From NCBI GenBank assembly GCA_963796715.1, contig CAWCMN010000007.1, positions 388,586 through 452,585 of the forward strand: DNA of 64,000 nt, read 5' to 3'. Below, piece by piece: positions 3,494-58,107 of this stretch. Every line of letters begins with the position of its first letter. Position 1 is the stretch's first letter. This DNA comes from an uncultured Chloroflexia bacterium. Lineage in GTDB: Bacteria > Chloroflexota > Limnocylindria > Limnocylindrales > CSP1-4. The notes below the pieces were generated by a model that was not told the origin of the DNA, searched no databases, and worked only from the letters and a program-made list of their open reading frames with translations. The position numbers and the translations under genes were made by a program.

Positions 3494-4462
3494 TCAGACG
3501 CTGGCGCGGCCCAGCAGGAAGAACCGGCCGGTCGTCGTGACCGTCGCGCTGCTGAAACCGGCCGTGCCTAACGCCCGCTCGAGCTCGGCCGGTTCGTAGA
3601 ACACCTTCGGCACCTGGAAGACACGGCCGTCAGAGAGGCGGCGCGTGGCCACCTCGGTCGCGGCATCCCACTCGTTGCCCACGGCCCCGGATCCTGGGTC
3701 GAGCCGTGAATCGATGAACGCGTACGTCCCGCCCGGCGCGAGCCAGGCGCGGGCGAGGCGCAGGAAGTCGGCCAGGCGATGGCGCGGCACGTGACTCAGC
3801 CAGAAGCCGGTGAACAGGCCACCTGCGGGAGGCGGTTCCGGCGGCGCCCACGCGTCGCGCTGGTGGAGATGGGCCAGGAGGTGATGCGCCACCAGCCGTC
3901 GGCGGGCGAGCTCGAGTGGCGCCGCGGCCGCGTCGTAGCACCACAACTCGCCCTTGGCGGCGAGCAGCGGCGACCACCAGCCCGTGCCGCTCGCCAGTTC
4001 CACGATCCGGCCGCTGAACGCCACGTCATCCAGCCAGGCGGTGGCCTGGTCGAGCTCCATCTGCCACGCCATGTCGTCGATCACGCCCCGCCGATACCGG
4101 CCGCGGCGCAGGTAGAAGTCGTCATATTCGGGGGCGCGAGCGTCGTAGTAGGCGATCAGGTCCGCATCGGTCGGGTCTGGCGCGGCCGTCGCCACGGCCG
4201 TCCTGGTGTCGCGGCCGGGGGGAGCGGCGTGGCGTGCGAGTGCGGCGTGCCCCGCGTTTGCATCGGACCCCGCGCCTGCTTCGGGCCCCGCGCCCGCCCG
4301 CTCCGCCAGGGCGGCCCGCAACCGGGCGCGCAGGAACGGGTTGTCGCCGGCACGACCGAGACATTCGGGGCAAAGGTGCGCCCATGCTTCCAGGTCCTGC
4401 CGGTCACGAACCGTCCAGCGCTGGCCGCACCACAGGCAATCGAACGTCTTGCGAACGGGCAC
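3494..4462 (-). CDS. class I SAM-dependent methyltransferase with an N-terminal C4 zinc-ribbon
   Basis: A GTG start is preceded by GAGGA (VPVRKTFDCLWCGQRW...HLCPECLG, two CxxC pairs). An Ala/Gly-rich linker follows, then methyltransferase motif I (IVELASGTGWW) and a post-I acidic residue. The 1282-aa ORF listed from 7342 is a GC artefact. Confidence 0.65.
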   Translation of the reverse strand: MPVRKTFDCLWCGQRWTVRDRQDLEAWAHLCPECLGRAGDNPFLRARLRAALAERAGAGPEAGAGSDANAGHAALARHAAPPGRDTRTAVATAAPDPTDADLIAYYDARAPEYDDFYLRRGRYRRGVIDDMAWQMELDQATAWLDDVAFSGRIVELASGTGWWSPLLAAKGELWCYDAAAAPLELARRRLVAHHLLAHLHQRDAWAPPEPPPAGGLFTGFWLSHVPRHRLADFLRLARAWLAPGGTYAFIDSRLDPGSGAVGNEWDAATEVATRRLSDGRVFQVPKVFYEPAELERALGTAGFSSATVTTTGRFFLLGRASV

Positions 4463-4506
4463 GGCGCCATCCTCGCACGCGGGCCGGTCATCTTGCCCGT
4501 GCCGCG

Positions 4507-4755
4507 GGCGGGCGGTCACTGTGAGTGAACGGATGCGGGCCGAGGCCTGCTCCCCAGTCGTCCTCGGGGCCGTTGCACGGGCCTTCGGTCGCTGTGGGTG
4601 AACGGATCCGGGTCGAACGACCCGTGTTGACCGCTCACCCGACCCCTCGGGGCCGTTTCGTTCACTGCCAGTGACCGACGAACGCGGTAGACGGTCGGGA
4701 CCGCCTCCGGTGACGGCTTCACGGGCGCGGTGTTCACGGTGAGTGACATCGATCG
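4507..4755. promoter_or_regulatory. array of four imperfect palindromes GTTCACT-N3-AGTGAAC phased at 73 bp
   Basis: Sites at 4514-4530 (GGTCACTGTGAGTGAAC), 4587-4603, 4660-4676 and 4732-4748 (GTTCACGGTGAGTGACA). Spacings are 73, 73 and 72 bp, about 7 helical turns. The flanks of units 1 and 2 are also similar, giving a degenerate 73 bp tandem repeat in the divergent MTase/trpB2 spacer. Confidence 0.5.
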
Positions 4756-4792
4756 CCCAGCAGGCCGATCCGGGCCCCCGACTCGCGGGCGT

Positions 4793-4960
4793 TCCCCGGC
4801 GCACCAGCCTCGTTGGTGCTATGCGCCTTCGCGCGGCGTCGGAGGAGGGCCGGGGCGGCTGGGCACGTACGGCCACGCTCGGTCCGCTCGTCATCCATGC
4901 CGCTCGGCCCTCCCGGTCGCACATACCACCAGCCTGGCTGGTAAGGCGTGGGCAGCCGGC
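4793..4960. repeat. dispersed about 170 bp repeat element, copy A, with palindromic termini
   Basis: It starts GCACCAGCCTCGTTGGTGCTATGCGCC and ends CACATACCACCAGCCTGGCTGGTAAGGCGTGGG. Both termini match the copies at 57696-57871 and 57932-58107 closely, and the middle is more divergent. Confidence 0.55.
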
Positions 4961-5146
4961 CGGCGAGGCGGGGGCAGGCGGCCGACGAGGCGTCGAGGCC
5001 TGGCCGCCCGCCGCTCGCCCGCCCGGTGCGCGACCAGCGCCGCCACCACTCCATCGTCGCCGCCTCCCGACCGGTATCATGCGGCCCCCGGCGGCCACGG
5101 CGCGCACCCGATGGCCGGCAGCGGGACCGAGGAGGAGGAGCGGGCC

Positions 5147-6508
5147 ATGGCGGAGAAGCGCACCAAGTTCGTGCTGGATGAGTCTCGCATCCCGCGCGTC
5201 TGGTACAACATCGCGGCCGACCTGCCGACGCCGCCGGCCCCCGTGCTGCATCCCGGCACGGGCCAGCCGATCGGGCCCGCCGACCTCGCGCCGCTCTTCC
5301 CCATGGCCCTCATCGGCCAGGAGGTGAGCACCGAGCGCGAGATCGAGATCCCCGGTCCGGTACGCGACGCCTATGCGCTCTACCGGCCGTCGCCGCTCTA
5401 TCGCGCCCACCGCCTCGAAGCCGCCCTCCAGACGCCGGCCCACATCTACTACAAGTACGAGGGTGTCAGCCCGGCCGGCAGCCACAAGCCCAACACGGCC
5501 ATCGCCCAGGCGTACTTCAACAAGGCCGAGGGCGTGAAGCGCCTCGCGACCGAGACGGGCGCCGGGCAGTGGGGCACGGCCCTCGCTTTCGCCGGTGCGC
5601 TCTTCGGCCTCGAGGTCAAGGTCTACATGGTGCGCGTGAGCTACGACCAGAAGCCGTACCGGCGCGTGCTGATGGAGGTCTACGGCGCGGAGGTCGTGGC
5701 CAGCCCCAGCCTGACCACCGACTACGGCAAGCGGGTCCTGGCGGAGGACCCCGACAGCCCCGGATCGCTCGGCATCGCCATCTCGGAGGCCGTCGAGGAC
5801 GCGGCCAAGCGCGACGACACGAAATACTCGCTGGGGTCGGTGCTGAACCACGTGCTCCTGCACCAGACGGTCATCGGCCAGGAGGCGATGGAGCAGATGG
5901 CCATGGCCGGCGAGCGCCCCGACGTGATCATCGGGTGCACCGGCGGCGGCTCCAACTTCGCCGGCCTGACCTTCCCGTTCCTGGGCCAGAAGCTGCGCGG
6001 CGAGGCCGACTACCGCGTCATCGCCGTCGAGCCGGAGGCAGCGCCGTCGATGACCCGCGGCGTCTACGCCTACGACTTCGGCGACACCGGCCAGATGACG
6101 CCGCTGGTCAAGATGCACACCCTGGGCCACGACTTCGTGCCCGACCCGATCCACGCCGGCGGCCTGCGCTACCACGGCATGGCGCCGCTCGTCAGCCTGC
6201 TGAAGGAGCAGGGCGTGATCGAAGCCCAGGCCGTCCATCAGCGGGCCACCTTCGAGGCCGGCGTCACCTTCGCCCGGGCGGAGGGCATCCTTCCCGCCCC
6301 GGAGCCGACACACGCCATCAAGGTCGCCATCGACGAGGCGGTCGCCGCCCGCGAGGCCGGCCAGGCCAAGGTGATCCTGTTCAACCTGTGCGGCCACGGC
6401 CACTTCGACCTGTCCGCCTACGAGCGCTACCTCAGCGGGCGCATGGAGGACTACGAGTACCCGACGGAGAAGGTGGCGGCGGCCCTCGCGGGCCTGCCCA
6501 AGGTCTAG
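5147..6508 (+). CDS. trpB: TrpB-like PLP-dependent enzyme (tryptophan synthase beta chain, TrpB2 type)
   Basis: GGAGGAGGAG lies 6 nt before the ATG. PLP-fold motifs are present ([36 protein letters not shown]). Its length (453 aa) and N-terminal extension are typical of the TrpB2 subfamily. Confidence 0.85.
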
Positions 6509-53680: not shown

Positions 53681-54170
53681 TCGCCTGAGCCGGGCGGGCG
53701 CCTCACCCGCTGGCGGGCGGCTCCCCGCTGGCGCGGCGGCTCCCCGCTGGCGGGCGGCTTCCCAGAGCGCTTTGCATCCAGCGGCGACAGCGACGGAGGA
53801 CGTCACCTTCGCCCGTCGTTTCGATCGCGGGATGCACCGAACGACGGGGGAACGGCCTCCCGGAGGCCCTCGGGACTCCTTGCTCCGTCGCTGTGATCGC
53901 CAGATGCAAATGGTGCGCCGGAGCCCGCGTGCGAGCCCGGCGTCGCGCCCGCTGGCCGGAGCCTCGTGCGAGCGGCGGCGGCGCGCCCGAGGCGTGCTGC
54001 GACATCAAAGGCCCCCTGCCGCTACGAAACAGGCGCGAAAGGCCGAGTCCGGGGAGCTCGCTGGCCGGATGGGACATCAAGGGCCCGCCTTGACCGCCGG
54101 ACGACGGCTTGGTCGGCCCTAGGGGGCCTTTTGTGTCGCACCCGACGGGAGCGGGTGCGGCGCCCGCGGA
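53681..54170. repeat. repeat-dense non-coding block: 3x tandem 18-19 bp unit (CCGCTGGCGGGCGGCTCC), a roughly 24 bp inverted repeat pair around TTTGCATC/GATGCAAA, and a direct repeat GACATCAA(A/G)GGCCC
   Basis: The repeats are seen directly in the sequence. There is no credible ORF between sodX and the convergent oxidoreductase gene. Confidence 0.5.
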
Positions 54171-57695: not shown

Positions 57696-57871
57696 GCATC
57701 CTCCCGGGCACTAGCCTGATTGGTGTTATGTGCGTTCGGGTGGCTCCTGGACCGCTCGGTCGGCCTCAGGTGATCCGATCCCGAGCGTGGGCGACGGCTC
57801 GGGACTGGGCTGGCGCGCCGAAGCAGCCACTTACCACCATCACGGCTGGTGAGGCGTGGAAACGGGTGCGG
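57696..57871. repeat. dispersed about 175 bp repeat element, copy B
   Basis: It is about 85 % identical to copy C across most of its length. The termini GCACTAGCCTGATTGGTGTTATGTGCG ... CACCATCACGGCTGGTGAGGCGTGGAAACGGGTGCGG match copy A. Confidence 0.6.
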
Positions 57872-57931: not shown

Positions 57932-58107
57932 GCATCCCTCCAGGCACCAGCCTGGTTGGTGTTATGTGCGTCCAGATGGCTCCTGGACCGCTCGGTCGGC
58001 CTCAGGTGATCCGACCCTGAGCGTGGCGCACAGCTCGAGCCTGAGCCAGCCCGACCGAACACCCACTTAGCACCAGCGCGGCTGGTGAGGCGTGGAAACG
58101 GGTGCGG
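57932..58107. repeat. dispersed about 175 bp repeat element, copy C (direct orientation, 236 bp period with copy B)
   Basis: The 5' end CACCAGCCTGGTTGGTG is palindrome-like, and the 3' end CACCAGC-GCG-GCTGGTG is a perfect 7 bp hairpin. Confidence 0.6.

Follow-up and report, generated by a model that had tools for sequence, protein, structure and literature searches.

A phased array of palindromes between divergent methyltransferase and trpB2 genes in Limnocylindria, and its possible origin from the operator array of an XRE-type regulator

Palindromes in the methyltransferase/trpB2 spacer

The window considered here (the whole 64-kb stretch of DNA that was analyzed) contains a methyltransferase gene and a gene encoding a TrpB2-like PLP enzyme, oriented divergently as an earlier note on this DNA had stated. 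The spacer between them carries four similar palindromes, three of which make up a conserved module, and a separate hairpin element:

3494-4462, minus strand: methyltransferase gene (Zn-ribbon and Methyltransf_25 domains, class I SAM), with a GTG start and GAGGA 7 nt upstream
4463-5146: methyltransferase/trpB2 divergent spacer, 684 bp (about 90-210 bp in relatives without the module)
4514-4530: site u1, GGTCACTGTGAGTGAAC, an extra copy of site A (secondary nhmmer profile match at 4509-4549)
4587-4603: site A (u2), GGTCGCTGTGGGTGAAC, the left end of the conserved module
4587-4748: three-site module A-B-C, 162 bp, with 145 bp from A to C (nhmmer match at 4578-4756, E = 1.9e-45)
4660-4676: site B (u3), GTTCACTGCCAGTGACC, the middle site
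4732-4748: site C (u4), GTTCACGGTGAGTGACA, the right end of the module, identical in relative L002
4802-4943, plus strand: separate hairpin repeat element, with two CACCAGC-N3-GYTGGTG palindromes 125 bp apart
5147-6508, plus strand: gene for a TrpB2-like PLP enzyme (PALP), with its ATG at 5147

The earlier note had called attention to four palindromes beginning at 4514, 4587, 4660, and 4732, hence spaced at 73, 73, and 72 bp from start to start, and the sequence of the window bears this out. The four are packed into 235 bp. They are imperfect, of the form GKTCAC-N5-GTGAMC, and the right half-site (GTGAMM) is better conserved than the left. When the 64-kb window was searched for GTTCACN5GTGAAC with two or fewer mismatches, exactly four matches were found, the four palindromes themselves. 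Shuffling that preserved dinucleotide frequencies gave on average 1.07 matches per 64 kb, at most three, and never four. The palindromes had also been thought to lie within degenerate tandem units of about 73 bp. This is so for the first two units, which are 75% identical over 57 nt (4487-4543 compared with 4560-4616), but not for the third and fourth, which resemble the first two only at the palindrome itself and at a few bases next to it. The attribution of the region to an actinobacterium was mistaken. The genome is that of a soil member of the Chloroflexota, class Limnocylindria, and all 80 loci carrying homologs of the methyltransferase come from such MAGs or from mis-binned relatives.

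No tRNA genes were found in the spacer, nor sigma-70 promoters, nor intrinsic terminators. A search of Rfam gave no match in the array region, either at the gathering threshold or at E<=10, and one chance-level match to an sRNA elsewhere in the spacer. A small open reading frame at 4516-4749 (minus strand) and a frame entering trpB2 were considered and rejected as genes: both have the Arg/Pro-rich composition of off-frame translation, and the frames are broken by indels between lineages.

The spacer also contains further inserted DNA, which varies by lineage. The hairpin element at 4802-4943 belongs to a type about 160-165 nt in length, in which the two hairpins are always 125-126 bp apart and the interior is variable. 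Two further copies in the window (57709-57851 and 57945-58087) lie in tandem with a period of 236, following a terminator-like hairpin between convergent genes encoding an MFS protein and a DUF4349 protein. The element is present in L002 and missing from L101, and it has no entry in Rfam. It is separate from the operator module. There are also GC-rich tandem repeats in the window, one of period 22 in the same spacer as the array (4944-4993) and others of periods 19, 37, and 38 at 53693-53989.

A three-site module of nearly constant length

Orthologs of the module were found in relatives L002, L093, and L101, and paralogs in L104 and L109. Seven modules were aligned: those from the window, L002, L093, and L101, which lie between methyltransferase and trpB2 genes, and those from L104 and L109 (two copies), which adjoin a gene encoding an XRE-type protein, described in the following section. 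Their length is 162 bp precisely in six cases and 160 bp in the seventh, and they align nearly without gaps from end to end. In a four-way alignment, the conserved stretch runs from site A to site C, with noise on either side. Identities differ according to context and position as follows:

Within the methyltransferase context: 87.6% in sites, 63.2% between sites, 44.2% outside the module
Within the XRE context: 85.0% in sites, 75.1% between sites, 38.9% outside the module
Between the two contexts: 85.0% in sites, 55.4% between sites, 32.3% outside the module

The internal spacings shift in a compensating fashion, 73 + 72 bp in the window versus 72 + 73 bp in L002, leaving the distance from A to C at 145 bp in both. 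The 6-N5-6 geometry of the palindromes is common to all arrays, and 20 of their 23 adjacent spacings are 71-73 bp. The comparison points to constraint on the sequence of the sites and on their spacing, with the DNA between sites much less constrained, and in this respect the operator-like character claimed for the palindromes has held up. The earlier note had also considered that they might belong to a genome-wide repeat family with random phasing. No such family was seen: besides the narrow range of spacings, searches by BLAST and nhmmer of about 1.5 Mb of related sequence found no copies other than the orthologs and the L104 copy. A pattern scan of metagenome contigs gave three matches, among them the paralogous copy of L104, and the array was not found in collections of viral contigs, plasmids, and phages.

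At the methyltransferase/trpB2 spacer, every array-bearing relative has three sites, and the window has four. The window array is a local expansion, to four sites, of a three-site module. Site u1 is a lineage-specific duplication of one 73-bp unit; L002, L093, L101, and L104 have three sites.

The array is present in the window, in L002 (and the nearly identical L081-L088 and L103), in L093-L096, and in L101. It is missing from L001, L014, L091, L092, L097, and the outgroup L005, in which the methyltransferase and trpB2 genes are separated by only about 90-210 bp. Conservation of the motif at orthologous spacers, on which the operator reading had been made to depend, is therefore partial: four related lineages carry the module, and six are without it. 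Since these six related lineages manage without the module, it must be dispensable for the flanking genes. The array lies within an insertion missing from the same six lineages and does not belong to the conserved sequence that would regulate the methyltransferase gene and trpB2.

Third codon positions of the flanking genes, about 77-82% identical between the window and its relatives, place the window outside the group consisting of L081, L091, L001, and L014. The presence and absence of the array disagree with this tree, so the array must have been gained and later lost, or else gained more than once; the tree fits gain followed by deletion and repeated insertion equally well. An 8-mer, CGGGCCGC, occurs at both ends of about 430 bp of extra DNA in L002 (at 5973-5983 and near 5540) and once at the empty site in L014 (5975-5990), while the window's copy has no clean flanking pattern. 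The 8-mer could be either a target duplication or the microhomology of a deletion.

The distance from the sites to the neighboring start codons differs widely among lineages. On the methyltransferase side it ranges from 52 to 390 bp, the upper figure being the distance between site A and the methyltransferase gene in L093, compared to 52-71 bp elsewhere. Such variability does not fit a fixed geometry of promoter and operator. In L093 (5556-5900, minus strand), about 330 bp of additional, unrelated DNA lies between the methyltransferase start and site A.

Related arrays beside a gene encoding an XRE-type protein

The earlier note found no obvious cognate regulator near the array. This much was confirmed: a tblastn search found no member of the XRE family described below encoded within the 64-kb window. 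A candidate is nonetheless to be had, as four other contigs (L104, L107, L108, and L109) carry arrays of the same phasing directly adjoining a gene for an XRE-type HTH protein, in the spacer where this gene and perM diverge. In L104, the module lies between the XRE gene (minus strand, Pfam HTH_3) and perM, which encodes an AI-2E transporter. The layout is the same in L109, where the module occurs twice in tandem, giving six sites separated by 72, 71, 81, 73, and 72 bp; the neighbors of the XRE gene there are perM, yidB, trpS, and a peptidase gene. The spacer of L107 has the sites GTTCGCTGCGAGCGAGC, GTTCGCCATGAGCGAAC, and GTTCGCCGCAGTCGAAC, spaced by 73 and 72 bp, with a fourth 83 bp upstream, and that of L108, whose XRE protein is P0250, has GTTCGCCTTCGCCGAAC, GTTCGCCTGGCACGAAC, and GTTCACCGGCAGCGAAC, separated by 71 and 73 bp. 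In both L107 and L108 the three or four palindromes are of the type GTTCGC-N5-GCGAAC, of which 0.14-0.22 matches would be expected from shuffled sequence. A second array of this type, with four sites (at 1297, 1369, 1442, and 1514, hence spacings of 72, 73, and 72 bp), lies directly 3' of the XRE stop codon in L108. This second array (1297-1573) is followed by sequence like that usually found adjacent to the XRE start, and there the contig ends.

The XRE gene and its array do not behave like their neighbors. Between L104 and L107, perM is 90% identical and the XRE proteins about 61%, and the intervening arrays cannot be aligned. It would follow that the XRE gene together with its array diverges, or is exchanged, much faster than perM. 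In the more distant L105 (851-1100) and L106 (1-300), perM comes straight after trpS across a spacer of 46-76 bp, with neither XRE gene nor array in between. Gene and array thus have the appearance of a joint insertion. In L104 (2198-2497 and, on the minus strand, 1251-2255), a frameshift splits the XRE gene just past the HTH, either an assembly error or the mark of a pseudogene.

Two other features of these loci may be mentioned. The sequence GTCGTAGACTGCGGCCATG is conserved directly 5' of perM (L104, 2815-2843; L107, 720-741; L108, 159-185; L109, 5405-5430) and includes a -10-like TAGACT. Its position just 6 nt from the perM ATG suggests that the perM mRNA is leaderless. Also, a gene related to tryptophan is found in both contexts: trpB2 in the window (5147-6508) and trpS, convergent with the XRE gene, in L104 (660-1691) and L109 (6754-7785). 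This may be a coincidence or a hint of a regulon.

The XRE family proteins have about 250 residues, comprising a ClgR-like HTH (ClgR is the nearest among solved structures) and a C-terminal domain of the PD-(D/E)XK fold. For the latter, fold comparison gave XisH, a factor that controls excision, as the top match and several restriction endonucleases as further matches. Residues E119, D131, E146, and S149 (in P0250 numbering) are among those that are invariant, and the first three form a pattern resembling the BamHI and BglII active sites. The position of the lysine of the nuclease motif varies, however, being occupied by H, Q, N, or E. A library clustered at 50% identity contains 286 representatives of the family at E <= 1e-30, mostly from uncultured soil Chloroflexota, and the plasmid, phage, and viral collections searched contain none. 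NCBIfam and PADLOC recognize the HTH of the protein alone. A search of the literature on regulation in Limnocylindria and on regulators joining XRE and endonuclease-like domains turned up nothing specific.

Although the window encodes no member of the family, the genome from which it comes very probably does. A protein identical to the window's methyltransferase, P0001, is very probably encoded on the same contig as P0250, the XRE protein of L108, as each is recorded on a contig of 739,767 bp. This would place the gene for the family member in the window's genome but outside the 64 kb.

The type of half-site appears to change along with the recognition helix of the adjoining protein, over three protein types and four loci: the helix AGISRPYLSAIEAG is found with GGTCAC/GTGAAC sites, and AGVSRAYLCEIEAG and AGISRSHLSEIEAG are found with GTTCGC/GCGAAC sites. 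From these four loci a recognition code may be predicted, in which A:T or G:C at position 5 of the half-site accompanies Ala or Glu in the helix. The motif of Streptomyces ClgR has been reported as GTTCGC-5N-GCG, which is contained within the GTTCGC-N5-GCGAAC of L107 and L108; the window carries the variant GKTCAC/GTGAMC. By type, the window array is GGTCAC/GTGAAC, as are those beside the proteins with an SRPYLSAIE helix (L104 and L109). P0250, very probably the protein resident in the window's genome, has arrays of its own that are of the GTTCGC/CGAAC type, with a GTTCAC half in one L108 site. This mismatch is the main weakness of reading the window array as an operator in its present genome. 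Possibly the genome has no cognate protein, or binding is only weak; a second paralog, relaxed specificity, and loss of the cognate protein are conceivable.

A displaced operator array and its alternatives

The explanation that we prefer, at a probability of roughly 0.6, is that the window array is a displaced copy of the cooperative operator array of an XRE regulator. The palindromes are most likely sites for a dimeric protein that combines a ClgR-like XRE HTH with a PD-(D/E)XK-fold domain, as judged from the arrays that adjoin the genes for such proteins. An HTH dimer would occupy each 6-N5-6 palindrome, with the centers of the half-sites one helical turn apart. Sites separated by 72-73 bp, about seven turns (6.9 at 10.5 bp/turn), would share one face of the DNA, and dimers on the same side could therefore touch one another through their nuclease-fold domains. 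Contacts of this sort might form short loops or a wrapped complex spanning the 145-bp distance between A and C. The module would be native to the spacer from which the XRE gene and perM diverge, where it would serve in autoregulation and in control of perM. The module as a whole would have been copied into the methyltransferase/trpB2 spacer in an ancestor of the window's lineage, passed on vertically, lost in several lineages, and enlarged by one 73-bp unit in the window. The copy might then put the methyltransferase gene, trpB2, or both under XRE control, or else it might titrate the XRE protein. The layout of sites and module, the constraint on sites and spacing, the association with the XRE gene, and the fold of the protein are observed; that the protein binds the sites, that it does so cooperatively, and that the methyltransferase gene or trpB2 is affected are what we infer. 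The candidate regulator's gene adjoins the array in L104, L107, L108, and L109 and is absent beside the window array, there being no family members (0) in the 64 kb.

How well does the proposal accord with known systems? ClgR is an activator of the XRE family that acts on clp and lon genes in Actinobacteria. The XRE family protein is like ClgR in that its HTH is nearest to that of ClgR and its predicted sites have the same 6-N5-6 palindromic geometry. However, ClgR, at about 100-120 residues, lacks the 170-residue nuclease-fold domain of the XRE family. Promoters controlled by ClgR carry one or two of its sites, which are not known to form fixed 162-bp triplets with 73-bp phasing. Also, the phylum is different, the window's sites are variant, and no clp genes are involved at the window locus.

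The operators lac O1/O2/O3 and gal OE/OI and those of lambda and 434 offer another comparison. There, as here, several palindromes lie in phase, recognized by a single HTH protein and bridged cooperatively, and the Lac repressor loops efficiently in vivo over short in-phase distances of about 70 bp. Unlike those systems, the arrays considered here have at least three equally spaced sites in a unit of fixed length, which has probably undergone tandem duplication and been transferred as a copy to a second locus. Oligomerization would proceed, moreover, through the domain of PD-(D/E)XK fold.

A third comparison is with sopC of the F plasmid, a tandem series of 43-bp units beside sopB, each with a palindrome bound by SopB. 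Both have tandem units of constant length with one palindrome each, adjoining the gene of the presumed binding protein (on both sides, in the case of L108). The arrays considered here differ in being chromosomal, with no gene for a ParA-type ATPase nearby, in the protein family concerned, and in having a unit of 73 bp. None of the families compared (ClgR, looping repressors, sopC/sopB) fits fully: here the protein has an extra nuclease-fold domain, the sites form a fixed 162-bp triplet that duplicates whole, and the locus is chromosomal, without a partition ATPase.

Perhaps, though, the module is a relic without function, copied by chance through ectopic recombination or repair, with nothing binding to it and its neighbors unaffected. 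Six related lineages keep the flanking genes without the module, the resident P0250 adjoins sites of a different type, distances to start codons vary, and the spacer has acquired other inserted repeats too, all of which a relic would readily accommodate. It would not so readily accommodate the conservation of the sites in the four modules of the methyltransferase context, 87.6% identical compared to 63% between the sites and about 77-82% at third codon positions of the flanking genes. Nor would a relic be expected to keep a length of 162 bp by means of compensating 1-bp shifts (72 + 73 versus 73 + 72). The identity of the sites and the preserved length of the module indicate that constraint continued after the copying took place, and a functionless relic, the best of the alternatives, is accordingly judged unlikely.

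The next alternative denies that the array is an ordinary operator. The gene for the HTH plus PD-(D/E)XK protein and its 73-bp arrays might constitute a selfish or specificity cassette, akin to a site-specific nuclease, to an excision or partition system, or to an immunity-type system, which diversifies rapidly and spreads or reshuffles its arrays. On this view the array of the window is an orphan whose specificity type differs from that of the resident protein, a stray target left as the footprint of array mobility or of the replacement of one cassette by another. Arrays would be recognition sites or assembly platforms, with an oligomer of nuclease-fold domains wrapping or bridging about 146 bp, and the protein might possibly retain catalytic activity. 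Several observations of the previous section are what one would expect of such a cassette: its absence between trpS and perM in L105 and L106, the discrepancy between perM (90% identity) and the XRE protein (about 61%) in L104 and L107 with arrays that defy alignment, the XRE gene of L108 with an array to either side, the growth of arrays by tandem duplication, the invariant acidic residues E119, D131, and E146, and the best fold match, to the excision-controlling factor XisH. Yet no recombinase, ParA-type ATPase, or methylase partner adjoins the XRE gene, and searches of plasmids, phages, and viral contigs found no member of the family. The nuclease motif has no fixed residue (H, Q, N, or E) where a lysine is usual, and a catalytically active nuclease with targets next to its own coding sequence would destroy itself. 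On balance we regard the cassette, too, as improbable.

A different kind of explanation looks to RNA. The module might specify a structured transcript of the plus strand, a long leader of trpB2 or a small RNA, with the palindromes forming hairpins or long-range helices. The consensus structure given by RNAalifold is better on the plus strand than on the minus (-34.7 versus -19.5 kcal/mol), it contains several G-U pairs, and five of its pairs are altered on both sides. Folding of single sequences, however, gave z-scores of -2.6 for the plus strand and -3.2 for the minus, so the minus strand folds equally well by this test. The direction of the wobble pairs is inconsistent, site u2 of the window and site B of L002 having G-T where the third site of L108 has A-C on the equivalent strand, and the hairpin is broken at several sites, e.g., at site A of L093 and in the right halves of L108. 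Palindromes of the same family pair with one another by construction. Considering also that no match to Rfam and no promoter or terminator was found and that different genes lie downstream of the module in its different contexts, we are strongly disinclined to accept a functional RNA.

Least credible of the four, in our estimation, is that the module is a MITE or a repeat of the REP/BIME type, whose terminal inverted repeats would be sites A and C. The module shares with such repeats an intergenic location, imperfect palindromes, variable presence, and local tandem expansion. It is polymorphic as an insertion among relatives, site A matches the reverse complement of site C, most copies have the same dinucleotide at both module ends (TC, CC, or CG), and the 8-mer CGGGCCGC bounds the larger insertion in L002. 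But a match of 2 bp is weak, particularly with only two independent events. The copy number, very low for a repeat of this kind, amounts to two genomic contexts, with no extra copy in about 1.5 Mb and three matches in the metagenome scan, and the inserted DNA is far longer than the module and variable from lineage to lineage. Finally, the arrays are tied to one regulator gene, and the half-site appears to change with it, which is not to be expected of the ends of a transposon unless the protein is its transposase.

Three other candidates were rejected: a CRISPR array, since the "spacers" are homologous between lineages, the repeats are degenerate and just 17 bp, and a tandem-repeat finder found none; the centromere of a plasmid partition system, since the neighbors of the XRE gene in L109 include no gene for a ParA/ParM-type NTPase and the family is not in the plasmid collection; and direct repeats for a response regulator such as GlnR, PhoP, or MtrA (of the form AC-N9-AC), dropped after the XRE-linked arrays and the match to ClgR came to light.

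If the window array is indeed a displaced copy of an operator array, then a complete operator module with several sites, its length and phasing fixed, has been copied in one piece into a new spacer. This would provide a direct route to the growth of a regulon, unlike the birth of single sites through point mutation. The arrays would also give a first handle on an uncharacterized family of regulators that join a ClgR-like head to a nuclease-fold domain, and the strict unit of 72-73 bp offers a testable prediction concerning the geometry by which such a protein would assemble on DNA.
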